62,568 nucleotides of DNA from Bordetella parapertussis. GTDB lineage: Bacteria; Pseudomonadota; Gammaproteobacteria; Burkholderiales; SG8-39. A program made the translations under genes and the position numbers. The notes under the pieces were generated by a model. That model saw nothing but the letters and a program-made list of their open reading frames with translations. It made no database searches and was not told the DNA's origin. Of the stretch, positions 1-62,567 are shown piece by piece. Where the stretch lies: the NCBI GenBank assembly GCA_945897475.1, contig CAMDFL010000003.1, positions 1 through 62,568 of the forward strand, given 5' to 3'. Every line of letters starts with the position of its first letter. Within the stretch, counting starts at the first letter, position 1.

Positions 1-177
1 TAGAAGGTCGAGTCCGCGCAGGCGTAGCGACGGCGCGACGGTTGCGGGGTTTATCGCAAGCGGCGTGACGGAGCGGTCAAAGTTACGGCGCCGCCAGCAC
101 CGAAATATGTCCGGTCTCGCTGGTGTCGGCGTCGCATTCAAATCGGCGACCGTGATAAACGCCAGGGAGCATCCGCG

Positions 178-501
178 TCACGCAGCAACCGTAATGCCAG
201 CCGCATGCTCGCGACGAGCCGGTTTTACAGTTATCTCGACCTGCTGATCGAACGACACCAGCGCCTGCATCAGGCGTTCAAGCGAAATATTCTGGAGTTT
301 GTAGCGACCAACCTGCGATACCTTGGGCTGTGTCATGCCGGTGATCGCGGCGGCCTCGGTCTGACTGAGCCCCCTGCTCCGGATGAGTTCGTTGAGTTTG
401 ACGGCAAGGATGGCTTTCGCGGACAGTTCTTCCGCGTCGTCGAACCCAAGGTCGATCAGCACATTGTCAGTGCCCTTGTGAGTGTCTTTGCGTCGCATCA
501 T
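178..501 (-). CDS. higA: XRE-family helix-turn-helix antitoxin, HigA-like (107 aa)
   Basis: Uses the internal start MMRRKD of ORF 178..720. HTH-like stretch LSQTEAAAITGMTQPKVSQV. Its ATG shares one base with the TAA of the upstream toxin ORF (TAATG, 499-503). Toxin-first order is typical of higBA. Confidence 0.8.
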   Translation of the reverse strand: MMRRKDTHKGTDNVLIDLGFDDAEELSAKAILAVKLNELIRSRGLSQTEAAAITGMTQPKVSQVGRYKLQNISLERLMQALVSFDQQVEITVKPARREHAAGITVAA

Positions 502-860
502 TACCTCCCGCTCAACCCATGTCGGGCAAGCACAGCCTTCAACCGCTTCTCGATCAATTGCACGTCCGGCTGCGGCGTGCTGATGCCGGACTTCGACTTC
601 TTCTGAAACGCATGCAGCACATGGATCGCATCTCCCACGCGCACCGTGTAGACCGCGCGAAAGGTGTCGCCCCGGTGATCTTCCACCAACTCGTAGACGC
701 CGGAACCAAGACCCTTCCACGGCTTCGACGAATCGGGCATGCGACCCACCTGGACCACAAAGAGCGCAACACCTATGTCCTTCTGGACCGGAATGGGGAA
801 TTCCTTGAAATCCTTCTTCGAGGAACCTTCCCAGAACAGCGGTCTGCGCATCTTAGTCAT
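501..860 (-). CDS. higB: RelE/ParE-superfamily toxin, HigB / phage Gp49-like (119 aa)
   Basis: ORF 501..860. Small basic protein with the pattern FKEFP..VQKDIG..L..VQ.G..P...KP..GLG.GVYEL..D..GDTFRAVY typical of Gp49/HigB-like toxins. Translationally coupled to the downstream XRE antitoxin. Confidence 0.8.
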   Translation of the reverse strand: MTKMRRPLFWEGSSKKDFKEFPIPVQKDIGVALFVVQVGRMPDSSKPWKGLGSGVYELVEDHRGDTFRAVYTVRVGDAIHVLHAFQKKSKSGISTPQPDVQLIEKRLKAVLARHGLSGR

Positions 861-862
861 GC

Positions 863-890
863 ATTATACCCGTTCGTATATAGATTGCAA
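863..890 (-). promoter_or_regulatory. sigma70-like promoter upstream of higB
   Basis: On the minus strand: TTGCAA (885-890), 16-bp spacer, TATAAT (863-868), immediately upstream of the higB ATG (858-860). Confidence 0.35.
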
Positions 891-957
891 GCATCGCCGC
901 CGCCGAGCCGCGTCGATAACCATACAACCAGAGCGCCCCCTCATTCCCAGACCACTC

Positions 958-985
958 TTGGTCCTGCGCGCCAAGCCCTTACAAT
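958..985 (+). promoter_or_regulatory. orphaned sigma70-like promoter (candidate ancestral mutS promoter)
   Basis: TTGGTC (958-963), 16-bp spacer, TACAAT (980-985), 8 nt before the ATG at 994 of the mutS-like stub. Confidence 0.4.
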
Positions 986-993
986 AGCGTGCG

Positions 994-1110
994 ATGAAAT
1001 ATCCCAGTCAGTCCGCCGAAATTTCTGCGACCCACACCCCGATGATGCATGGGCGTAAAGTCCTCGCCGCCATTGGCTTTTCAGGCAATCGCTGCCGCGA
1101 CCTACACTGA
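994..1110 (+). pseudogene. mutS 5'-end stub (38-codon ORF; the first 18 codons resemble a MutS N-terminus)
   Basis: The ATG at 994 encodes MKYPSQSAEISATHTPMM, then diverges (HGRKVLAAIGFSGNRCRDLH*). THTPMM matches the conserved MutS motif AHTPMMQQY at 3334-3360 in the same codon phase. 19 nt (1031-1049) match 3335-3353 at 18/19 positions. Confidence 0.55.
1031..1049. repeat. left 19-bp direct repeat (cccacaCcccgatgatgca) flanking the AbiE insertion
   Basis: 18/19 identical to 3335-3353. Both copies are in the same reading phase over HTPMM. Confidence 0.6.
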
Positions 1111-1361
1111 AACCTATACCGGACTGAAAGATTTCGGGCTCGCGTCATCCGTGTCGCTCTGTCGTTGGCGCGTTTGGTTTGGTGCCACGCGCCCGCCGTC
1201 TCCGTTCTACTGCGTCGAGCCCGTTTAGCTCGACGAGCGGCCGGTCACGCTTGCGGCAAACTAGCTGGAGCATTCTGTCCCTATTTGGCGCTATAGCAGC
1301 TCCCTGCGCTAAATGGCCTCCGGTACAAGTTGTAGATAGATTTATTGGAACAGGTTGTTAT

Positions 1362-1453
1362 ATCGTAGTATGGCTACGACAAATACTTCTTTTCAAAATT
1401 TCTTGACTTCAAAATTATTAGAAAAAAGTATATAATCGTAGTATGACTACGAC
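1362..1453 (+). promoter_or_regulatory. abiE promoter region with two copies of a 19-bp element, each holding a 6+6 inverted repeat (candidate AbiEi operators)
   Basis: atcgtagtatgGctacgac (1362-1380) and atcgtagtatgActacgac (1435-1453). Each contains TCGTAG-N5-CTACGA. TATAAT at 1431-1436 lies 6 nt before the abiEi ATG (1443). Copy 2 overlaps the -10 element and the start codon. Confidence 0.5.
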
Positions 1454-2180
1454 TTCTACAAGCAAGCTAAATACCCTCTACACCCGTCTGCCCATGGGTT
1501 CCCCAATCACCTCGGCACAACTCGCCGCGCTCGGGGTTTCGGCCGATCTCGCGGTCCACTATGCCCGCTCAGGTTGGCTCAAGCGACTGGGACGAGGGGT
1601 CTATTGCCGACCCGGTGAAGCCCTGTCGCTGCACCCGAGCCTCGTCGTGCTCCAGCAGCAAATCCCCGGACTTCATGTCGGAGGCAAGACGGCGCTGGAA
1701 TGGTACGGCGTGCGCCAATACGTCTCGCAGCAGGCTGCATTGCATTTATACGGCTGGGCGGCCGCGCGCCTGCCTGATTGGTTCGGTCAGCATTTTCCGG
1801 GCGAGTATCACCGCAAGCGGCTTTTCACCGAGGAGCCAGCGCAGATGCCCGGTGTGGGTCCTTTCGAAAACCGCGCCAACGCGCCGCTGGTCTCGACACC
1901 GGAGCGGGCGCTGCTCGAATTGCTGGACGAGGTCGGCGTCCGGCAACCACTGCAGGAAGCGCGTGAAATCGCCGAAGGAACATACAGCCTGCGTGCCGAG
2001 GTGCTGATGGATCTTCTCAAGCGCTGCACGAGCGTCAAGACGGTCCGGCTCTGCCTGCGCCTCGGACGCGAGCTCTCCCTGCCGTGGGTCGGCAAGCTCG
2101 ATGAGGCCGTGCTGCCCAAAGGCAGCGCCTTGCCGTGGATATCGAAGTCCAAGGATGGGTTACTGGTGCTCAAACCATGA
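1443..2180 (+). CDS. abiEi: AbiEi-family antitoxin / transcriptional regulator (type IV TA, abortive infection)
   Basis: ORF 1443..2180. N-terminal winged-helix pattern ITSAQLAALGVSADLAVHYARSGWLKRLGRGVY is typical of AbiEi_4-like antitoxins. The stop overlaps the downstream start (ATGA at 2177-2180). Confidence 0.85.
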   Translation: MTTTSTSKLNTLYTRLPMGSPITSAQLAALGVSADLAVHYARSGWLKRLGRGVYCRPGEALSLHPSLVVLQQQIPGLHVGGKTALEWYGVRQYVSQQAALHLYGWAAARLPDWFGQHFPGEYHRKRLFTEEPAQMPGVGPFENRANAPLVSTPERALLELLDEVGVRQPLQEAREIAEGTYSLRAEVLMDLLKRCTSVKTVRLCLRLGRELSLPWVGKLDEAVLPKGSALPWISKSKDGLLVLKP

Positions 2181-3091
2181 ATCAGATCTATCTCGATACC
2201 GCGCGCCTGATGCTACAGGTAGCGCCACTCGTATTCGCCGACAACGTGTTTGCCCTGAAGGGCGGCACCGCGATCAATCTTTTCGTGCGTGACATGCCGC
2301 GCCTGTCCGTGGACCTTGATCTCGTGTTTGTCGATCACCGCCTCGGCCGGGACGAAGCGCTTGCCAGGATCAACGAAGCGATCCGGAATAGTGTGGATCG
2401 TCTCAAGAAGCGCGGGTTCCAAACCCACGCGGCGACCGTGGCCGACGCCGGCGAAACAAAACTCTTCGTGCGCCGCGACAAGCTCGAAGTGAAGGTGGAA
2501 GTGAATTTCGTGCTTCGCGGAACCGTGCACCCGATTCGCTCGACATCGCTCACTCCGAAGGCAAAAGAGACGCTGCTCGCCGACCTGGAACTGCCCGTCG
2601 TGTCGCTCCCAGACCTCTACGGCGGAAAGCTCGTCGCCGCCCTGGATCGTCAACACCCGCGTGACTTGTTCGACGTGATGGAGCTTTTTCTCCACGGAGG
2701 AATCACGCCGGAAATCAGGCGCAGCTTTGTGGTCTATCTCGCATCTCACAACCGGCCGATTCATGAGGTGCTTTTCCCGAACCTTCGGGACATCTCCGGT
2801 GAATACGAAGGCACGTTCAAGGGCATGACGACGGAGCCGGTGGAGTTGAAGGCCCTCGTCTCCGCGCGCGAGCGCATGATCGCTGAACTGAAAGCGGGCC
2901 TCGACGCCGCCGAGCGGGAGTTCCTGTTATCGCTCGCCCGCAATGAGCCCAATTGGGATTTGCTTGGCATCGAACACCTTGAGCAACTTCCCGGCATCCG
3001 GTGGAAACTCGCAAATCTCGGGCGCCTGGCGAACAGCAACCCGAAGAAACTCAAGGAGCAGGCACGGATGCTGGAGCACCTGCTCAGTTAG
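2177..3091 (+). CDS. abiEii: AbiEii/AbiGii-family nucleotidyltransferase toxin (DUF1814)
   Basis: Uses the internal start MNQIYLD of ORF 2135..3091. NTase motifs LKGGTAINLF and SVDLDLVF, followed by YGGKLVAALDRQHPRDLFDV. Confidence 0.9.
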   Translation: MNQIYLDTARLMLQVAPLVFADNVFALKGGTAINLFVRDMPRLSVDLDLVFVDHRLGRDEALARINEAIRNSVDRLKKRGFQTHAATVADAGETKLFVRRDKLEVKVEVNFVLRGTVHPIRSTSLTPKAKETLLADLELPVVSLPDLYGGKLVAALDRQHPRDLFDVMELFLHGGITPEIRRSFVVYLASHNRPIHEVLFPNLRDISGEYEGTFKGMTTEPVELKALVSARERMIAELKAGLDAAEREFLLSLARNEPNWDLLGIEHLEQLPGIRWKLANLGRLANSNPKKLKEQARMLEHLLS

Positions 3092-3291
3092 ACCGTCCAA
3101 TTCCAGTAACGGAGATTGCGAAAAACGGACAATCGCTTTCCCATTGATACCGGAATTTTCAGTCTATTTACAACCGCTATCTGTTGTACTGACTGCTTGA
3201 AGGGCCGATTGTCATTCCAATAGAGGAATAAATTCGAGATGACCCGCTTCGTGTTTCTGCGAATCCCCATCCGCTCCCGTAAAATGCTCCC

Positions 3292-5874
3292 GTGAACGCA
3301 CCGCAATCCCCTCCCGCCGCAAAGAATACCGATGCCCACACGCCGATGATGCAGCAGTACCTTCGCTTGAAGGCACAGCATCCGGACATTCTGCTTTTCT
3401 ATCGCATGGGCGACTTCTATGAGCTGTTTCATGCCGATGCCGAAAAAGCGGCCAAACTTCTCGACATCACGCTGACCACGCGCGGGGCTTCGGCAGGCAC
3501 GCCGATCAAGATGGCGGGGGTGCCCTATCACGCGGCGGAACAGTATCTGGCAAAGCTGGTACGGCTGGGCGAATCGGTGGCGATCTGCGAGCAGATCGGC
3601 GATCCCACTACCTCCAAGGGGCTAGTTGAGCGAGCGGTGATGCGCATTGTCACCCCCGGCACATTGACGGACGCGGCGCTGCTCGATGACAAAGCCGACA
3701 ACATTCTTCTTGCTCTCAGCGTGGAGGGGTCGCTTGCGGGCCTTGCCTGGCTGAATCTGGCCAGTGGGGAGATGCGGGTGATGGAAATCGCGCTGCAGGG
3801 GCTGGCCTCGGAGCTGCGGCGAATTTCTCCTGCGGAAGTCCTGCTTGCGGATAGCAAGCGCCTTCCCGATGAACTGGCGGGATTTCATGTCAGCCATGTT
3901 GGCGAGTGGCTGTTCGATATCACCGCGGGACGCTCAGCCTTGCTCGCCCAATTGCGCGCGGCGAGTCTTGCCGGCTTCGGCTGCGAGGATCTGGGGCCCG
4001 CTATCGGCGCGTGCGGCGCGCTTCTGGATTACGCCCGGAAAACCCAGGGGCAGTCCCTCGCTCATGTGAATGCCGTTATCGCCGAGCGGCCCGGTGAATA
4101 CCTGCGAATGGACCCGGCCACGCGGCGCAATCTGGAGATCACGGAAACTCTGCGTGGCGAACCCTCACCCACGCTGCATTCGTTGCTGGATGTCTGCGCA
4201 TCTGGCATGGGCAGCCGCCTGCTGCGCCATTGGCTGCACCACCCGCTTCGCGACCGCGCGGTGCTTGGCGCACGCCACGCTGCAATCGCGGTCTTGGTCT
4301 CGCAGGATGCCGCTCGAAAAATGATCGAGACGCAACTTCGCCATGTCGCCGATGTCGAGCGTATCGCCGCGCGCCTGGCATTGAAAAGCGCTAGGCCGCG
4401 CGATTTATCATCGCTGAGGGATAGTCTGTCTGTGCTGCCGGAGCTGACTACTCTGATTCCACAATCAGAATGCGATTTGCTTGATTCACTCCGAGCGGGG
4501 CTGGCCTGCCCTATCGATTGTCTTGAACTTCTGCGCCGTTCTATTCAGGAGGAACCCTCAGTCGTCTTGCGCGAAGGCGGCGTGATTGCCGCGGGATACA
4601 GCGCCGCGCTGGACGAATTGCGAGGGCTCCAGACCAATGCCGGCGCCTATCTTGTCGATCTCGAAGCACGCGAACGCGCACGCACCGGCATCTCCAACCT
4701 CAAGGTCGAGTACAACCGCGTGCACGGCTACTACATAGAGATCACCAACTCTAACGCCACCCGCGTACCCGACGACTATCGCCGCCGCCAGACGCTCAAA
4801 AATGCCGAGCGCTATATCACCCCTGAGCTGAAAACCTTCGAGGACAAAGCGCTTTCCGCGCAGGAGCGATCCTTGGCGCTTGAGAAAACCTTGTACGAAG
4901 AGTTGCTCGCGCTTCTTCTGCCGCATCTGGAGACCTTGCAGCGCATTGCGCGTTCGCTCGCGCAACTGGATGTGCTCGCAGCGTTCGCGCAAACGGCGTT
5001 GCTGCGTAATTATTGCCGGCCCGTTTTCACCGATGAGCCCGGCCTTGCCATCGAGGCGGGTCGGCATCCCGTGGTCGAAGGCCTGGTTGAGTCTTTCATC
5101 GCCAATGACACGCAACTGTCCCCCACGCGCCGCATGCTGCTCATCACCGGGCCCAATATGGGCGGCAAATCGACTTACATGAGGCAGGTGGCGCTGATCG
5201 CCTTGATGGCGCATGCCGGATCATTCGTTCCTGCGAAAGCCGCGCGCATCGGCCCAGTGGACCAGATCTTCACCCGTATCGGCGCCGCCGATGACCTTGC
5301 CGGCGGTCGCTCGACTTTCATGGTGGAGATGACCGAATCGGCCAACATCCTGCACAACGCCACCGAGAAAAGTCTGGTGTTGATGGACGAAGTGGGGCGC
5401 GGCACCTCTACCTTTGACGGACTGGCGCTTGCCTGGGCTATCGCGCGCCATCTTGTCGAGAAGAATCGCGCGGGGTCTCTGTTCGCCACTCATTACTTCG
5501 AACTCACGCGCTTGGCGCTGGATTTCAAGGAAGTGGCCAACGTGCATCTGGATGCGATCGAGCACAAGGACCGCATTGTGTTTTTGCATCACGTGGAAGA
5601 GGGGCCCGCCAGCCAAAGCTACGGCTTACAGGTTGCGGCTTTGGCGGGAGTGCCGGCAGGCGTGACGCGCGCCGCGCGCCGATATCTGCAGCAACTGGAG
5701 GCTTCGCAGCTCAACACCGGCGGTCAGAGCGATTTATTTGCCGGGCCCGCGAAGCCCGAGGAGCCCGAACCCGCAACAGACGCCTTGCGTGAGGCCATGC
5801 AACAGGTGAATCCCGACGAACTATCGCCCAGGGAAGCACTCGATCTGCTCTACAAACTCAAGCGCCTGCCCTGA
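3292..5874 (+). CDS. mutS: DNA mismatch repair protein MutS
   Basis: 860-aa [36 protein letters not shown] mismatch-binding N-terminus and Walker [18 protein letters not shown] start at 3292; the ATG pair at 3346 is an alternative start. Confidence 0.97.
3335..3353. repeat. right 19-bp direct repeat (cccacaGgccgatgatgca) inside mutS codons 15-21
   Basis: Partner of 1031-1049. Confidence 0.6.
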
Positions 5875-54392: not shown

Positions 54393-55112
54393 ATGGGAGA
54401 AATCATGGCATTGATCTCGACACGCAGGTATTGCGCCATCCTTGCTGCGACATCTGCAATATTCTGGCTCGCACCCCAAGCCGCGCTTGCCCAGGCGCTT
54501 GCCCATGACTACCCGAATCGAGATATCCATTTCATCTGCGCATTTCCCGCAGGCAGCGGCGCCGATGTGCTGGTGCGGCATTTCGCCGAAAAGCTCCGCC
54601 CCATCATCAACCGCGCCGTGATCGTGGAGAACCGCGCTGGCGCTGACGGCAATATCGCCACCGAATACGTGGCGCGCGCAAAACCGGACGGCTACACCAT
54701 CTATGTGCATGGCGCCAGCGGCCTCGCGGCAAACATGCATCTGTTCAAAAAACCGCCAGTGGATGTGGCCAAAGCAATCCAGGTCGCCGGCACCATCAAC
54801 GTTCAGCCCTTCATGTTGAATGTCAGCGCCAAGAGCCCCTACCAGAACGTCGGCGAGATCTACAAAGCGCTCACTGGCATTCAGGCGATCGAGGTGAGTT
54901 ACCGCACCGGCGCCGATTCCTTAAACGAACTCTCCAGCGGCAAGCTCGACTACGCCATGCTCGATGCTGATTAAATCGATCCAGGACTGGGGCACATACG
55001 TGAAGATGGCAAAGATTGTGCCGCAGTAATGCAGCCTATCTCTGTCTGGCGAAGGTGTACTCGTAATTTTCCCGATCTGCACGGCAATGAGCTCGAAATC
55101 CGTGCGTACTGA
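54393..55112 (+). pseudogene. decayed Bug-family gene (internal deletion, premature stop, frameshifted tail)
   Basis: ORF 54393..54974 has a normal Bug N-half (ENRAGADG, DGYT). It lacks the ~35-aa PGK..YGS.G.GS segment and stops at 54974. The Bug-like sequence continues in the +2 frame (LGHIREDGK..AAV....FPDL) to 55112. Confidence 0.6.
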
Positions 55113-55161
55113 GCTTGCCGAAGGCAAGATGCTCTATGGAGAAAGCTTACGCCGACCCCAT

Positions 55162-57207
55162 TTATTCGGCCTCCTCAGCCGGTTTGTGGGCGGCGCTAAG
55201 GCGGTGCTGCAACTGTGCCGGGGTCGGCTCGTAATGGCTGAAATCCAGCGTATAGGCGCCTTCGCCCGAGGTCAGCGATTTCAGCCGTGCCGCAAAGTTC
55301 TCCAATTCAGACAAAGGCACCTGCGCCGAGATGCGGCTCACGCCGGGGCGTATCAGGTCAGTGCCGCGCAGGTGTGCACGGCGCGCAGTGAGGTCTCCGC
55401 TGACATCGCCGATGCGCGCCTCAGGAACCATTACTTCGATACTCACTACGGGCTCGAGGATCATCGGGCGCGCCTTCGAGAGCGCGTCGATGAACGCCTT
55501 GCGGCCCGCCGAGACAAACGCGATTTCCTTGGAATCAACCGGGTGGTGTTTGCCATCGAAGACTGCGACGCGCAGATCCTGGATCGGATAGCCGGCGAAG
55601 TAGCCCGATTCGAGCACGACGCGCACGCCCTTCTCCACCGCAGATATGAACACCGATGGAATCGCACCGCCCTTGACCTCGTCGACGAATTCGAATCCGC
55701 CGCCGCGCGGCAGCGGCTCGACGCGGAGAGACACTTCGCCGAACTGGCCAGCGCCACCCGACTGTTTTTTGTGGCGCGCATGGCCCTGTGCCTTTGCCGC
55801 AATGGTCTCGCGAAACGGGATGCTCGGCGGGCGCGTGTCGACCTCCAGCTTGTGCTGCGTGGCCATGCGATCGAGCAGCGTCTTCAGATGCAGCTCGCCC
55901 AGGCCGCGGATGACGGTTTCGTTCGCCTGCGGGTCGCGCTCGACGCGAAAGCACGGATCCTCGGCAAGGAAGCGGCGCAGCACGTCCGATAGTTTCTGCT
56001 CATCGCCGCGTTTTTTGGGAAGCAGCGTCAGCCCGAATACCGACGCCGGCAAATCCAGCGGCTGTGCATGGATATGGGCATCGTCCGCGGCGTCATGCAA
56101 CACCTGATGGAAGCGCAGTTCCTCGACCTTACTCACCGCGCAGATGTCCCCAGGCAGCGCCTCATCGAGCGCGAATTGTTGCTTACCGCGCAACAACCAC
56201 AGGTGCCCGGGCTTGAAGGGCTTGCGGCCGTCGCCGGCATACAGTTGCATATTGGGCGTCACACGCCCCTGATGAACGCGGAATACGCCGACGCGACCGA
56301 TGAATGGGTCGATCTCCACCTTGAACACATGCGCCAGCACGTGCCGTCCCGGATCGGGAACTGCATCGAGTGTGGCGCTCACTGCGCCCGCGGTACTCAC
56401 ATAGTGCGGCGGATTGCCTTCTGTCGGGTTGGGCAGCAGGCGCACGATAATCCGCAAAAGTTCGGCCACACCCGCGCCAGTCGAAGCCGAGGTGAACACC
56501 ACTGGGATGAGATGGCCCTCGCGGAGCGCACGCTCGAAGGGCTGGTGCAGTTGCTCAGGCGCAATCTCCCCTTGTTCCAGGTACAGCGCCATTAACTTCT
56601 CATCCATCTCCACCACTTGATCGACCAATTCCCGGTGCGCCTGTTCCACCGAGGAGAAATCCGACTCGCCGCCGGGGGAGAAAAAACAGTCCGCGACACG
56701 CGTCGCCCCGCCCGCTGGCAGATTAATCGGCAGGCATTCGCGACCAAATACCTCGCGAATACGCTCGAGCAGTGCGGGGAGATCGACATGTTCGGCATCG
56801 ATGCGATTGACCACGATGATCCGGTCAAGGCCCATTTGTTCGGCCCATCGCATCATCCGATGCGTCATCAACTCAATGCCGTTCTGCGCGTTGATGACAA
56901 TCGCCGCAGTCTCGACCGCGCTCAACGCAGGCAGCGCATGGCCGACAAAATCGGGATAGCCGGGCGTATCCAAGAGATGTATCCGGGTATCCTCGGCCTC
57001 GAATGTCGCCACTGCAAGTTTGATCGAATGGCGCAATTGATGTTCAAGGGGCAGGTAATCGCACACGGTGGTGCCTTGCTCGACACTGCCCGCTGCCGGA
57101 ATCGCCCCGGCGGCCGCGAGCAAGGCCTCGGCCAGGCTGGTCTTGCCGCTTCCCGCCTGCCCCACCAGCGCGAGAGTACGGATGTTTCTGATGGAAACTT
57201 TTCTCAT
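55162..57207 (-). CDS. divergent elongation factor G paralogue (EF-G-like GTPase)
   Basis: 681 aa with full five-domain length. G1 is GQAGSGKTS, G3 is DTPGYPDF (His replaced by Tyr) and G4 is NRID (instead of NKxD). Confidence 0.85.
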   Translation of the reverse strand: MRKVSIRNIRTLALVGQAGSGKTSLAEALLAAAGAIPAAGSVEQGTTVCDYLPLEHQLRHSIKLAVATFEAEDTRIHLLDTPGYPDFVGHALPALSAVETAAIVINAQNGIELMTHRMMRWAEQMGLDRIIVVNRIDAEHVDLPALLERIREVFGRECLPINLPAGGATRVADCFFSPGGESDFSSVEQAHRELVDQVVEMDEKLMALYLEQGEIAPEQLHQPFERALREGHLIPVVFTSASTGAGVAELLRIIVRLLPNPTEGNPPHYVSTAGAVSATLDAVPDPGRHVLAHVFKVEIDPFIGRVGVFRVHQGRVTPNMQLYAGDGRKPFKPGHLWLLRGKQQFALDEALPGDICAVSKVEELRFHQVLHDAADDAHIHAQPLDLPASVFGLTLLPKKRGDEQKLSDVLRRFLAEDPCFRVERDPQANETVIRGLGELHLKTLLDRMATQHKLEVDTRPPSIPFRETIAAKAQGHARHKKQSGGAGQFGEVSLRVEPLPRGGGFEFVDEVKGGAIPSVFISAVEKGVRVVLESGYFAGYPIQDLRVAVFDGKHHPVDSKEIAFVSAGRKAFIDALSKARPMILEPVVSIEVMVPEARIGDVSGDLTARRAHLRGTDLIRPGVSRISAQVPLSELENFAARLKSLTSGEGAYTLDFSHYEPTPAQLQHRLSAAHKPAEEAE

Positions 57208-57450
57208 CGATGCACTCCCCTGACGATGTCCAATCTGGGCGCCGGTGCGTTCAATTTAGGCCATGCCGTCCACGAGTGCAATCTCCCATTGCAAATAAAG
57301 AGGCGCCAAAGATGCGGGCGGGAGCATTCAGCCGCAATTGGCCCGTGCCTGTAAGATCTTGTGTCAGACGAATTCGAGCCGAGTACCCTCGTGCCTCCTT
57401 GCCTTCAGCACGTGGCCATTGTCGTGAACCCTCACCAACGGAGTTCTTAA

Positions 57451-58440
57451 ATGCGCCTTGCCAAGCCTAATGCAGCATCGAAGTTGAGTTTGACCCTCGC
57501 AGCCTTGGCTGCGGTCATTGCGTGGACTTCCCCGGCCGCCGCGCAATCCTGGCCGGTCAAACCGATCAAACTGGTGCAAGGATTCGCCGCCGGCGGCAAC
57601 GGCGACATCATTGCGCGCCTGGTGGCGCAAAACATTACCGGGCCTCTGGGCCAAGCGCTGGTGGTGGAGGGTCGCACCGGCGGGGGTGGAAACCTTGCCG
57701 CGGATTTCGTCGCCAAATCGCCAGCCGATGGCTACACCCTCATTTTGCTCACCGGTGGGCATGCGGTTTCGGCGGCCATCTACCGGCAATTACCATTCGA
57801 TCCCATTGATGATTTCTCAATGGTTTCGCTGGTGTCGCAGTTTGCGTTCGTGGTTGCCACCGCGCCGGACTCTCCCTTGAAAAGCATGGCCGACGTGATC
57901 ACCCTATCGAAAAAAATGCCCGGTTCGCTCTCGTTTAGTTCGGCGGGCACCGGCACCACCCAGCATCTTGCCGGTGAACTGTTCAAATCCGCAGCCGGCA
58001 TCGACATGATTCATGTGCCCTATCGTGGTGGCTTGGCGCCGGTCACCGATGTCATGGCGGGACGGGTGAGCATGATGTTTGAGACCTTCACACCAACGCT
58101 GCCGCAAATCCGGGCCGGAAAATTGCGTGCGCTTGGCGTTACCTCGATGGGACGATCGAGCATTCTTCCTGATCTTGCCCCGGTCGCTGAAACGGTAGCC
58201 AACTTCGAGGTCACTTCATGGATGGGAATTGCCGCGCCCGCGAAACTCCCCGGCCCGATATTGGATCGCCTCAACCGGGAAATGTTGCGTGCCATTGCAT
58301 CGCCCGAGGCTCGCGAACGTCTCACTGGCCTGGGCGCAGACCCACGCTCCAGCTCACCCGCCGAAATGCGCGCCCATGTAGCGACGGAAATTGACAAATG
58401 GAAGCGTGTAGTCGAAATGGCCAAAATCGAGCGGCAGTAA
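57451..58440 (+). CDS. Bug-family (TctC-like) substrate-binding protein
   Basis: Signal peptide followed by AQSWPVKPIKLVQGFAAGGNGD motif. Confidence 0.9.
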   Translation: MRLAKPNAASKLSLTLAALAAVIAWTSPAAAQSWPVKPIKLVQGFAAGGNGDIIARLVAQNITGPLGQALVVEGRTGGGGNLAADFVAKSPADGYTLILLTGGHAVSAAIYRQLPFDPIDDFSMVSLVSQFAFVVATAPDSPLKSMADVITLSKKMPGSLSFSSAGTGTTQHLAGELFKSAAGIDMIHVPYRGGLAPVTDVMAGRVSMMFETFTPTLPQIRAGKLRALGVTSMGRSSILPDLAPVAETVANFEVTSWMGIAAPAKLPGPILDRLNREMLRAIASPEARERLTGLGADPRSSSPAEMRAHVATEIDKWKRVVEMAKIERQ

Positions 58441-59012: not shown

Positions 59013-59052
59013 AATAAATATCAGAGCGGTTGATAAAGTATCAGAGCGGTCT
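59013..59052. repeat. 20-bp tandem repeat x2 (..taaatatcagagcggt..) abutting the ppk2 stop
   Basis: tatcagagcggt at 59019-59030 and 59039-59050. The ppk2 stop is at 59051-59053. Confidence 0.75.
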
Positions 59053-59938
59053 AATAGACCTTGGGGACAAACCGCTGACTCGATATTTTCGGGCGTTTAT
59101 AGCCTATATCACCTTGGCGCGGCGGCACTTCAATCTCCACCGGCGTCATATTTTCATAGGGAATCTGCCGGAGCAAATGCGTGATGCAATTGAGGCGGGC
59201 TTTTTTCTTGTTGTCGGCTTCCACCACGTGCCAAGGGTTTTTTTTAGTATCCGTCTCCGCAAACATCTCGTCCTTCGCCTTGGAATACTCGCTCCAGCGC
59301 TTGCGCGACTCCATATCCATCGGGCTTAGCTTCCAGCGCTTGGAAGGATTGCGAATCCGTTCCTGGAAACGTTTTTCCTGCTCCTCGTCATTGACCGAGA
59401 ACCAGTACTTGACAAGATATATGCCGGAACGAACCAGCATTTCCTCGAACAAGGGGCAGGATCGCAGGAACTCTTTGTATTCAGGCTCGGTGCAAAAACC
59501 CATGACGTGCTCCACGCCGGCGCGGTTGTACCAACTGCGGTCAAACAGCACGATTTCTCCCGCAGCGGGCAGATGAGGAACGTAGCGCTGAAAATACCAC
59601 TGCCCACGTTCGCGTTCTGTGGGTGTGCCCAACGCGGCAATCCTGCATACCCTGGGGTTGAGGCTCTCAGTAATTCGTTTAATCACGCCACCCTTGCCGG
59701 CGGCATCGCGGCCCTCGAAGATCACGGCAAGTTTCAGGCCCCGCATGCGCACCCATTCCTGGAGCTTGATGAGTTCCATCTGGAGGTGGGCAAGCTCCTC
59801 GACGTACTTGAAATTTTTGCGCGGCTTGGGCAGTTTGGCGCGGCCTGCCAGGTGCCAGATTTGCTCAATTTTGGCGGCCTCCTTCGCATCTTCCAGAACC
59901 TCGCCGCCCTTGCTCTTTTCCACCTTCTTCTTTGCCAT
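59051..59938 (-). CDS. ppk2: polyphosphate kinase 2
   Basis: Walker A FEGRDAAGKGG. FDRSWYNR and PPK2 lid-region motifs. Confidence 0.92.
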   Translation of the reverse strand: MAKKKVEKSKGGEVLEDAKEAAKIEQIWHLAGRAKLPKPRKNFKYVEELAHLQMELIKLQEWVRMRGLKLAVIFEGRDAAGKGGVIKRITESLNPRVCRIAALGTPTERERGQWYFQRYVPHLPAAGEIVLFDRSWYNRAGVEHVMGFCTEPEYKEFLRSCPLFEEMLVRSGIYLVKYWFSVNDEEQEKRFQERIRNPSKRWKLSPMDMESRKRWSEYSKAKDEMFAETDTKKNPWHVVEADNKKKARLNCITHLLRQIPYENMTPVEIEVPPRQGDIGYKRPKISSQRFVPKVY

Positions 59939-60003
59939 CGCTCATCCTCCAGGATTGGTGATTTCAGCGTGCAGACTAACACCACTGGAAAAATCTGGAG
60001 AAT

Positions 60004-61050
60004 TTAGAGTTCCCGGCGCACTATCGCCGCCCCCTCGGCCAGCGCTTTCAACTTGCCGAATGCCACCGCGCGCGGCAGATATTTCATTCCGCAATCGGGA
60101 GCCAGGATCAGCTGCTCCGCGGGCAGGTGCTTCAATGCAAGGCGTACTCGTGCTGCCACATCGGCGGCAGACTCCACCCGTTGGTCGTCCAAACTGATCA
60201 TGCCAAGCACCATTTTCTTGCCGGGAAGATCTTTCAACACACCGAAATCGATTCTGGGTTGCGCCGCCTCAATGGAAATCTGTTCAACAATGCAATCGGC
60301 GAGCTGCGTGAGGAAGGTATAGCCCGCCGGTTTGTTGAATACAATATAGGCGTAACCAAAGCACAGGTGCACCACCGTAGGCCCTGGGATTCCCTGCAAC
60401 GCGCGATTGATCACTTTCACGCCGTAGCGATTGGCCGCCTCGGGACGAGCTTGCAGCCAGGGATCATCAATCTGCAATACATCGGCGCCGGCGGCTTTCA
60501 GATCGCGAAGCTCTTCGTTTAAGGCGATGGCGTAGTCGAACGCCATTTCTTCCTCGTCTTTGTAATAATCGTTTTGCGTCTGTTGCGCCATGGTGAAAGG
60601 GCCTGGCACAGTTATCTTTATAATCTTGCTGGTATTTTTTCGAAGAAATTCCACATCGCGAACTTCCACGGGATGCTTGCGTCGAATTTTTCCGACCACG
60701 CGCGGCACAATAGATTTATTGCCGGTGCGCGCCACGGTTTCACCGGGGCGCTCCAGATCGATTCCCTCCAACGCGGTGGCGAATCGATTCGAATAACTTT
60801 CTCGACGTATCTCGCCATCGGTGATGATGTCGATGCCGGCGCGCTCCATGTCGCGGATCGCAAGCAGCGTGGCATCGTCCTGCGCCTCCTCGAGATATGG
60901 CTCGGCTATGCGCCAGATTTCCTTCGCGCGCACTCGAGGCGGCATCTTGGAGGTCAACAATGCACGGTCGACCAACCAATCGGGCTGTGGATAGCTGCCA
61001 ACCACGGTTGTCGGCAAAATAGGTAATACACTTTCAGTCGGCAGCGGCAA
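60004..61050 (-). CDS. cobalamin-independent methionine synthase family (MetE C-terminal-domain-like) protein
   Basis: VGSYPQP N-terminus. Zn-ligand contexts VVHLCFGY and LILAPDCGM. Confidence 0.8.
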   Translation of the reverse strand: MPLPTESVLPILPTTVVGSYPQPDWLVDRALLTSKMPPRVRAKEIWRIAEPYLEEAQDDATLLAIRDMERAGIDIITDGEIRRESYSNRFATALEGIDLERPGETVARTGNKSIVPRVVGKIRRKHPVEVRDVEFLRKNTSKIIKITVPGPFTMAQQTQNDYYKDEEEMAFDYAIALNEELRDLKAAGADVLQIDDPWLQARPEAANRYGVKVINRALQGIPGPTVVHLCFGYAYIVFNKPAGYTFLTQLADCIVEQISIEAAQPRIDFGVLKDLPGKKMVLGMISLDDQRVESAADVAARVRLALKHLPAEQLILAPDCGMKYLPRAVAFGKLKALAEGAAIVRREL

Positions 61051-61086
61051 TGGTTTCTCCAGAGGACGATTTAATGCAAACCGGAA

Positions 61087-61851
61087 TTACGCCCTGAATT
61101 TCGCCAGCAGCTTTTCGCTTTCTCGCGCGAGAATACTCACATCCGCACCGACCGCGACAAAAAGCGCACCGACTTCGAGCCAGTGCTTGGCATCGGCCTC
61201 CACTCCAGTCAGAATTCCCGGCGCCTTGCCGCATTTGCGGATACGACGCAAGGCTTCGTCGATGATGGGAACAATCTTCGGATTATTGGTCTCGCCGGTA
61301 TAACCCAGGGAAGCATGCAGATCGCCCGGACCGATGAACACACCATCCACGCCCTCGACATTCGCGATCGCCTCCAGATTCGTGAGGCCGAGCTCGGTCT
61401 CAATCTGCAACAGCACGCACAATTCCTGGTGAGCGCTCTTGGCATAGCCCTTGACGCGTCCAAAGCGCGTCGCCCGAGAGGTCCCGGCGACACCGCGAAC
61501 GCCATGCGGCGGATAGCGGGTGTAGGCAACCGCGTTACGCGCCTCTTCCTCGGTTTGAATATACGGAATCAGGAGCGAGGTCGCGCCGATATCCAGGGTC
61601 CGCTTGATGGTGACCATGTCATTCCACGGCACGCGCACTACCGCCTCGGTCGGATACGGCGCCGCCGCCTGCAATTGCCCGAGGACATTTTCCAGGTCCG
61701 CGGGCGAATGTTCGGTATCGATCAGAATCCAGTCGTAGCCGGACCCTGCGATGACTTCGACGCAGTAACTGTTCGAAAGACTGGACCAAAGGCCGATTTG
61801 CGGCTTACCGACGGCAAGCGCGCGTTTAAATGAATTGACGGGCAATTCCAT
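61087..61851 (-). CDS. HpcH/HpaI-family aldolase
   Basis: Uses the internal start MELPVNSFKRAL of ORF 61087..61905. DWILIDTEH and FIGPGDL motifs. The ATG shares one base with the upstream TAA. Confidence 0.88.
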   Translation of the reverse strand: MELPVNSFKRALAVGKPQIGLWSSLSNSYCVEVIAGSGYDWILIDTEHSPADLENVLGQLQAAAPYPTEAVVRVPWNDMVTIKRTLDIGATSLLIPYIQTEEEARNAVAYTRYPPHGVRGVAGTSRATRFGRVKGYAKSAHQELCVLLQIETELGLTNLEAIANVEGVDGVFIGPGDLHASLGYTGETNNPKIVPIIDEALRRIRKCGKAPGILTGVEADAKHWLEVGALFVAVGADVSILARESEKLLAKFRA

Positions 61852-62567
61852 TATTTCTTCTCCGCGCGAATTTGCGCCAATGCGCGTTCGCGCCACAGAG
61901 GCCATGCGCGGTTGTATTCCTGCGCCGGCACCGAGGCGGCCTGCTCGGCATCATCGATAAAAGCCAACTTGCCGCCAGGTCCCGCGATCATCATCGCCTG
62001 CATCTGCATGCGAGCGCTCATCTCGAGATAGATGCTGCGGCCCACCGCGCGCGGCAGAGTCTCGCCCACCGTCACCGAGCCGTGGCCGCGCATGAGCGCC
62101 GCAGGATGCTTGCCCAGTACCTTTGCCAGCGCTTCTCCCAAGTAGGCAGTCTTCACCAGTAGATCGGTGCCTTTTTGCGCATCGCGAATCTCAAAATTAG
62201 GCAGTCCATTGCCCACAAACGCCGCCATGTGATACACCGCGCGCATCGGCACATCGGTCAGGCTGAAGGGCACCACCGAGGGAGAATGGTTATGAACCAC
62301 CGCGACGATTTCCGGGCGCGCCTTGTAGATCTCGCCATGAATGAAACGTTCTCGCACCGACTCGCGGCCATTGGGATCAAGTGGCGTACTGTCCAGGTCG
62401 TATTCGATGATGTCTTTCTCGTGCACGCGCTCCGGGGCGATGGCCTGGGAGAGAAAGTAATGAGTGGGATTTTTCTCCGAACGCACGCTGACGTGGCCAT
62501 AGGCGTCTATGACGCCATGCTCGGCGAGAATTCTATTTGCCGCTACGAGATCTTCAATCTGACTCAC
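61851..62567 (-). CDS. class II aldolase / adducin-domain protein (start at or beyond the window edge)
   Basis: YGHVSVR and VVHNHS motifs. A GTG at 62565-62567 could be the start, but the window ends at 62568. Confidence 0.8.
   Translation of the reverse strand: MSQIEDLVAANRILAEHGVIDAYGHVSVRSEKNPTHYFLSQAIAPERVHEKDIIEYDLDSTPLDPNGRESVRERFIHGEIYKARPEIVAVVHNHSPSVVPFSLTDVPMRAVYHMAAFVGNGLPNFEIRDAQKGTDLLVKTAYLGEALAKVLGKHPAALMRGHGSVTVGETLPRAVGRSIYLEMSARMQMQAMMIAGPGGKLAFIDDAEQAASVPAQEYNRAWPLWRERALAQIRAEKK

Follow-up and report, generated by a model that had tools for sequence, protein, structure and literature searches.

The window (the whole 62,568-nucleotide stretch of DNA that was analysed) carried, on the minus strand, an open reading frame of 681 codons plus stop (protein P0001). 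It begins with ATG, and a GGGGAG-like ribosome-binding site precedes the start by 7 nt. The coordinates of the original prediction were exact (Table 1). The frame was flanked by a shortened TctC/Bug ORF (54393–54974) and by an intact, divergently transcribed TctC/Bug ORF (57451–58440), and neither rpsL, rpsG or tuf nor other ribosomal-protein genes were found near it; the gene thus stands alone between a decayed and an intact Bug gene and outside the str operon, as had been described. The intergenic region shared with the intact Bug gene presumably holds the promoter. A promoter and terminator consensus scan (including sigma-70) and an Rfam search of positions 54900–57600 gave no match.

Table 1. 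Coordinates of the EF-G paralogue, its motifs and its upstream region in the window, with the evidence for each.
Feature	Position	Strand	Evidence
EFG II-type EF-G paralogue	55162..57207	-	ORF, five Pfam domains, NF009891, AlphaFold model, dN/dS
G domain with shortened G' insert (aa 8-259)	56431..57186	-	Pfam GTP_EFTU, G4-to-G5 distance
G1/P-loop GQAGSGKTS (aa 16-24)	57136..57162	-	translation, homologue motifs, alignment
Switch I/G2 LRHSI (aa 58-62)	57022..57036	-	alignment columns
G3/switch II DTPGYPDF (aa 80-87)	56947..56970	-	translation, alignment
Tyr84 codon	56956-56958	-	within G3
G4 NRID (aa 134-137)	56797..56808	-	homologue motifs, alignment
Domain IV (aa 461-579)	55471..55827	-	Pfam EFG_IV, E = 4e-38
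Divergent intergenic region, 243 bp, shared with intact Bug/TctC gene	57208..57450	.	sequence

All five Pfam EF-G domains exceeded their cut-offs and lay in EF-G order (GTP_EFTU, aa 8–259; EF-G_D2, 292–363; EFG_III, 386–459; EFG_IV, 461–579; EFG_C, 583–669), which bears out the EF-G length and domain order claimed for the protein. Among NCBIfam models, the protein scored 933.1 bits with NF009891 ('elongation factor G', equivalog; cut-off 597), 445.7 bits with the canonical EF-G model TIGR00484 (below its cut-off of 659.4) and 269.1 bits with the tet_protect model NF012153 (below its cut-off of 775); other Tet models scored lower still. A Tet(M)/Tet(O)-type ribosomal protection protein, or another drug-displacing resistance factor, would have the same five-domain architecture, would account for the weak tet_protect match and would suit the label 'TetQ' borne by the PDB entry of Bacteroides EF-G2. 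This reading was rejected on the HMM cut-offs, the match lying far under its threshold, and is highly improbable also because domain IV has EF-G-type and not Tet-type loops, the gene is conserved vertically (60–90% identity) across uncultured soil and groundwater Burkholderiales, and no mobile-element or resistance-gene context was found around it.

The best PDB relatives were, in order, T. thermophilus EF-G-2 (1WDT/2DY1; E = 1.5e-121, full length), M. smegmatis EF-G2 (9K0Z) and B. thetaiotaomicron EF-G2 (7UVP), for which G3 was aligned as DAPGYGDF, DTPGYADF and DCPGSDDF, respectively. When 1.84 billion cluster representatives were searched exhaustively with HMMER, 3176 proteins were retrieved at E <= 1e-30. 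The full-length proteins among the best 150 of these 3176 matches (142 representatives, 32–49% identical to the query) were aligned by MAFFT FFT-NS-2 with 8 close homologues and 12 canonical translational GTPases (9 EF-G I proteins from the same genome and order, and the RF3, BipA and LepA of the same genome). A tree of the 162 sequences was built with FastTree (LG+gamma) and rooted on RF3/BipA/LepA. With EF-G I sampled from one order and supports being FastTree local values, the query fell in a 150-member clade (support 0.94) together with P0214, essentially T. thermophilus EF-G-2 (1328 bits to 1WDT), and the sister of this clade was an all-His EF-G I clade (support 0.98). The phylogeny against EF-G I, RF3, LepA and BipA therefore placed the query with EFG II, and the Tet-type proteins were compared by HMM cut-offs as above. 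Representatives P0138 and P0143 could not be tied to solved EF-G2 structures.

The EFG II subfamily was defined by Margus, Remm & Tenson 2011 (PMC3150367), with a type I signature of Gly at 16 and Leu at 25 (1WDT numbering), a switch I relaxed family-wide from RGITI to xxxSx and reading xxHSL in a beta/gamma-proteobacterial sub-subgroup, many indels in G', and constant coexistence with another EF-G. In that study spdEFG was set apart from EFG II, G3 was given only as DxPG, and the lost His was not mentioned. Both signature residues are present in the paralogue (G16 and L25; the columns hold G in 121 and L in 120 of the 142 representatives, and Ala and Thr in EF-G I), and its switch I, LRHSI, fits the xxHS[LI] pattern of the beta/gamma-proteobacterial EFG II. 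The distance from G4 to G5 (TSAS, aa 239–242) was 103 aa, compared with 122–136 aa in EF-G I of the same order. The gene is almost certainly an EFG II (EF-G2) paralogue of the beta/gamma-proteobacterial subgroup: the NF009891 score, the best PDB match, the tree and the signature residues agree on the EF-G II-type identity originally named.

The G1, G3 and G4 motifs were found in the translation as they had been predicted. The P-loop keeps an intact Walker A motif (GxxxxGK[ST]) and has Gln17 where AHID has His, His-Ile-Asp being replaced by Gln-Ala-Gly. His occupies this column in 108/142 representatives, and a GQ[AS]G-type P-loop was present in every one of 121 close homologues (70–100% identity to the query). 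In switch I, LRHSI replaces RGITI and places Ser61 at the position of the Mg-coordinating Thr (S 116 and T 25 among the 142 representatives); the close homologues read L[QRGL]HSL. Tyr84 aligned in the column that holds His in 12/12 canonical translational GTPases, so that the substitution is not a reading shift. A register slip of the catalytic His, which the original prediction had named as its own refutation, was thereby ruled out. Across the 142 representatives the column holds Y 76, F 23, A 11, S 6, H 5, D 5 and L 4, and DTPGYPDF itself was present in 106/121 close homologues. Loss of the His is thus a hallmark of the EFG II family, and the substitutions in the paralogue are family-wide and nothing special to this gene.

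The guanine-specificity motif had also been called altered. G4 does read NRID, differing from the canonical motif by a single Lys-to-Arg change, and both Asn134 and the specificity residue Asp137 are retained. Among the 142 representatives the first position is N in 101 and T in 31, the second K in 86 and R in 32, and the last D in 135; the close homologues carry NKID (80/121) or NRID (18/121). NRID is thus a frequent, conservative variant in which neither Asn nor the guanine-specifying Asp is lost, and an altered guanine specificity is unsupported. The nucleotide-binding scaffold is intact (Walker A, DxxG, N[KR]xD and SA).

The tip of EF-G domain IV reaches the decoding centre. In the paralogue both tip loops, HKKQSGGAGQFG (aa 479–490) and GKHHPVDS (aa 552–559), are conserved, and residues Q482, G484, G485, G487, H555, V557, D558 and S559 were invariant in alignment A1 and near-invariant in the 142 representatives. 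The near-invariant patterns are KKQ[ST]GGxGQ[FY]G, with Q482, and GxxHxVDS, with H555. GEV where E. coli has GHV is no sign of a lost tip histidine, since E, H or D stands at that position in EF-G I proteins from the same order. An AlphaFold2 model computed from a 69-sequence alignment had a pLDDT of 91.5 and a pTM of 0.82. Foldseek on this predicted model ranked 1WDT first and matched ribosome-bound EF-G structures as well; TM-scores of the predicted fold against 1WDT, 9K0Z and 8DMF were 0.83–0.89 (9K0Z, 0.89; 8DMF, 0.88). The EF-G fold of the paralogue is complete. Compared with a 90%-identical orthologue (locus L021, GCA_009693475.1), dN/dS was 0.086, which shows strong purifying selection on the paralogue. 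A duplicate that is decaying into a pseudogene would be in keeping with the diverged G-domain motifs, with the shortened Bug gene next door and with a nearby gene content that differs from that of the close relative. It is hardly credible, given the dN/dS, the open 681-codon frame, the pLDDT, the recurrence of DTPGYPDF in 106/121 homologues and a family above cut-off in 21/41 related genomes, and was rejected on the first of these together with the conservation.

A canonical fusA elsewhere in the genome, which the original prediction had proposed to look for, was located on another contig (C7; G000:C7:35770–37893). It encodes a His-bearing EF-G I (896 bits against TIGR00484; AHIDAGKTT, RGITI, DTPGHVDF and NKMD) to which the paralogue is 30% identical. 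This copy is not beside rpsG, and rpsG was not found anywhere in the assembly (92% complete, 296 contigs), so that the str operon is probably unassembled. A genome of the same genus (G003) carries two EF-G I-type genes and an EFG II gene, so the present organism may likewise have three genes of the EF-G family.

Taken whole, the locus is probably best explained by an EFG II paralogue with impaired hydrolysis and an auxiliary or starvation role; the functional part of this explanation, impaired hydrolysis together with an auxiliary or starvation role, is itself somewhat favoured. The paralogue would bind GTP or GDP and occupy the EF-G site on the 70S ribosome. There, the residues that let the sarcin-ricin loop trigger hydrolysis would be missing, as they are replaced by Tyr84, the Gln-Ala-Gly P-loop and the Leu-Arg-His-Ser switch I (for Arg-Gly-Ile-Thr, with Arg, Ile and Thr all exchanged). 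Because every element of the sarcin-ricin coupling is replaced, GTP hydrolysis on the ribosome would be poor or absent. If two recently characterised members are a guide, the paralogue may work beside canonical EF-G under nutrient scarcity, either by slow, hydrolysis-free translocation, as for Bacteroides EF-G2, or by holding post-translocation ribosomes and slowing translation, as for M. smegmatis EF-G2. Neither a conserved neighbour, at this locus or at those of relatives, nor a regulatory element around the gene was found that points to starvation or stress control.

The characterised members bear on hydrolysis in different ways. In M. smegmatis EF-G2, Tyr98 faces away from the gamma-phosphate and ribosome-dependent GTPase activity is minimal; under stress this protein keeps ribosomes trapped after translocation, and in mycobacterial EF-G1 GTPase activity is nearly abolished by H88Y (bioRxiv 10.64898/2026.05.25.727771). 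B. thetaiotaomicron EF-G2 is reported to translocate slowly without GTPase activity (Han et al. 2023, PMC9841332, as cited in other work). With the same Tyr and a similar P-loop, T. thermophilus EF-G-2 has been reported to show intrinsic and ribosome-dependent GTPase activity as well as poly(Phe) and translocation activity, and Tyr alone is therefore no proof of lost hydrolysis. A fully active alternative translocase, in which Tyr84 or another residue supports hydrolysis and which would serve as a second, perhaps condition-specific EF-G, would accord with this Thermus protein (DAPGYGDF) and with the intact nucleotide-binding motifs and domain IV tip of the paralogue. It is nevertheless unlikely, because EF-G1 H88Y is almost without GTPase activity and that of MsmEF-G2 is minimal, because the clade additionally lacks the P-loop His (Gln17) and the switch I Arg, and because EFG II has never been found without another EF-G. 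A dedicated recycling EF-G of the spdEFG2 or mitochondrial EF-G2 type, working with RRF, would follow the division of labour between paralogues that is known in Borrelia, Pseudomonas and mitochondria. We consider it very unlikely here: at least in mitochondrial EF-G2 the catalytic His and conserved G motifs are retained, and the His is absent from the paralogue; spdEFG is separated from EFG II by Margus 2011 (PMC3150367); and MsmEF-G2, of the same family, cannot recycle.

The paralogue was also compared with the closest known systems. From the EFG II beta/gamma-proteobacterial sub-subgroup the paralogue shows no material difference, and it is a member: it shares the five domains, Gly16 and Leu25, the xxHS[LI] switch I, the shortened G', an EF-G I partner and a position outside the str operon. 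T. thermophilus EF-G-2 (1WDT/2DY1) is the best match in sequence and fold and has the Tyr and a GxAGSGKT P-loop, but is only ~36–40% identical and reads GHAG and TKLD where the paralogue reads GQAG and NRID. M. smegmatis EF-G2 (9K0Z/9K10) resembles it in DTPGY, in the degenerate P-loop and switch I and in fold (TM 0.89); it differs in belonging to a different phylum subgroup (~35% identity), in having Thr and Leu for Asn and Met in G4 and in lacking a conserved G5, where the paralogue retains NRID and SA. B. thetaiotaomicron EF-G2 (7UVP/8DMF) is likewise EFG II-type, without the catalytic His and close in fold (TM 0.88), but has Ser at that position (DCPGSDDF), NQLD as G4 and a length of 718 aa. 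With canonical EF-G I (TIGR00484) the paralogue shares the domain order, the fold and the domain IV loops KKQxGGxGQ[FY]G and GxxHxVDS; it departs from it in GQAG for AHID, LRHSI for RGITI, DTPGY for DTPGH and a shorter G' insert. Like the EFG II family and its beta/gamma-proteobacterial subgroup, the change from His to Tyr is already known from the literature and from NCBI annotation models. As Tyr for His is the norm in the described EFG II family, the feature is real but ordinary. A useful result is the family-wide loss of the His (H 5/142) alongside an almost invariant domain IV tip.

Gene order around the paralogue was conserved in close kin only. The 90%-identical relative (L021) shares PPK2, a MetE-like gene, an HpcH aldolase, TctC genes and a GST with this locus, and relatives at 72–73% identity have an upstream ABC-2/GldG-like/DUF4340/DUF2721 block that is limited to their sublineage. 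No conserved partner gene or operon was found in three annotated contigs or in ORF clusters from ~90 loci, and each neighbour was limited to 4 or fewer of the 52 loci at which a crude ORF caller recovered the EF-G gene; this caller is rough in high-GC DNA, which makes the result weak negative evidence. PPK2, a polyphosphate-dependent nucleotide kinase, lies ~2 kb from the paralogue. As its synteny is limited to the 90%-identical relative, no functional link to it is claimed.

Proteins above the NF009891 cut-off were found in 21/41 genomes of the same genus, family and order and in 21/121 genomes sampled across the class, the latter tally counting the present genome (G000) and resting in part on an unpublished one (G077). 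The gene, which is under strong purifying selection, is thus kept by about half of the related genomes searched in the order and by about one-sixth of those sampled across the class. The named carriers are mostly metagenome-assembled genomes of uncultured soil and groundwater Burkholderiales/Betaproteobacteria. Since this clade has replaced the P-loop His and the switch I Arg as well, its members may act purely as a switch that binds GTP without hydrolysing it, and may thereby park ribosomes or move them slowly forward when Burkholderiales of oligotrophic soil and groundwater starve. We offer this as a tentative proposal drawn from the sequences; if true, translation in an energy-saving mode would extend to a third phylum besides Bacteroidota and Actinomycetota. 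To our knowledge, no proteobacterial EFG II member has been characterised so far. Cultured carriers were found at ~61% identity in Noviherbaspirillum denitrificans and Methylocaldum, and N. denitrificans, with its 61% identical orthologue, is a reasonable system in which to study a hydrolysis-independent EF-G2 beyond Bacteroides and mycobacteria.

The surroundings of the EF-G2 gene were compared between the window and locus L021 of the relative GCA_009693475.1, which carries a 90%-identical orthologue. At L021, genes for a glyoxalase, a cNMP-binding protein and a Ser/Thr-kinase-like protein lie between EF-G2 and the GST gene (L021:8081-10924); all three are absent from the window at 54975-55161, and the blastn blocks joining the two sequences leave out L021 8127-9145 and 9510-11100. 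Together, the alignment gaps and the three missing genes suggest that deletions occurred locally around EF-G2, with EF-G2 itself kept. EF-G2 is flanked by two Bug/TctC genes, and their decay is reciprocal, the opposite copy being decayed in the window and in the relative. A further block, encoding PPK2, a MetE-like protein (Meth_synt_2) and two aldolases, one HpcH/HpaI and one class II, is conserved between the two with 87% of nucleotides identical. Nucleoside triphosphates can be regenerated from polyphosphate by PPK2; a link between PPK2 and EF-G2 is without support beyond this close relative.

Features around EF-G2 in the window and at L021 of GCA_009693475.1
Feature	Window	L021	State
Bug/TctC copy downstream of EF-G2	54393-55112		Truncated
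Bug/TctC copy upstream of EF-G2	57451-58440		Intact; divergent to EF-G2
Bug/TctC copies in GCA_009693475.1		5463-5945 and 8608-9588	Upstream, 160-aa fragment; downstream, intact
PPK2/MetE-like/HpcH/HpaI aldolase/class II aldolase block	59051-62567	83-3630	

EF-G2 orthologues 61-70% identical to the beta-proteobacterial protein were also present in records (loci L039, L046, L050, L055, L060, L061, L064, L065, L067, L087, L091 and L099) with the titles Gemmatimonadaceae, 'uncultured Enterobacteriaceae' and 'Streptomycetaceae', and in one of Methylocaldum, 5.3 Mb long and titled 'plasmid unnamed'. These titles likely reflect mislabelled bins or records; lateral transfer is a possible alternative cause.

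The only canonical EF-G found in the source assembly (G000) was the copy on contig C7 (L001, G000:C7:34270-39393), which is not adjoined by rpsG. With a G4-to-G5 distance of 136 aa, this copy belongs to the long-G' type, like L103 and L107, which come from relatives where a second EF-G I, of the str type, is present as well. Because rpsG (TIGR01029) was not found anywhere in G000, a 92%-complete MAG, the str operon apparently did not assemble there. A third EF-G I-like gene was observed in another member of the order, G039 (L109, G039:C7:292600-294900); it has motifs AHVDAGKTT, DTPGHIDF and NKLD, a score of 537 bits against the EF-G2-type model NF009891 (cut-off 597 bits) and, by genome search, one in-frame TGA.
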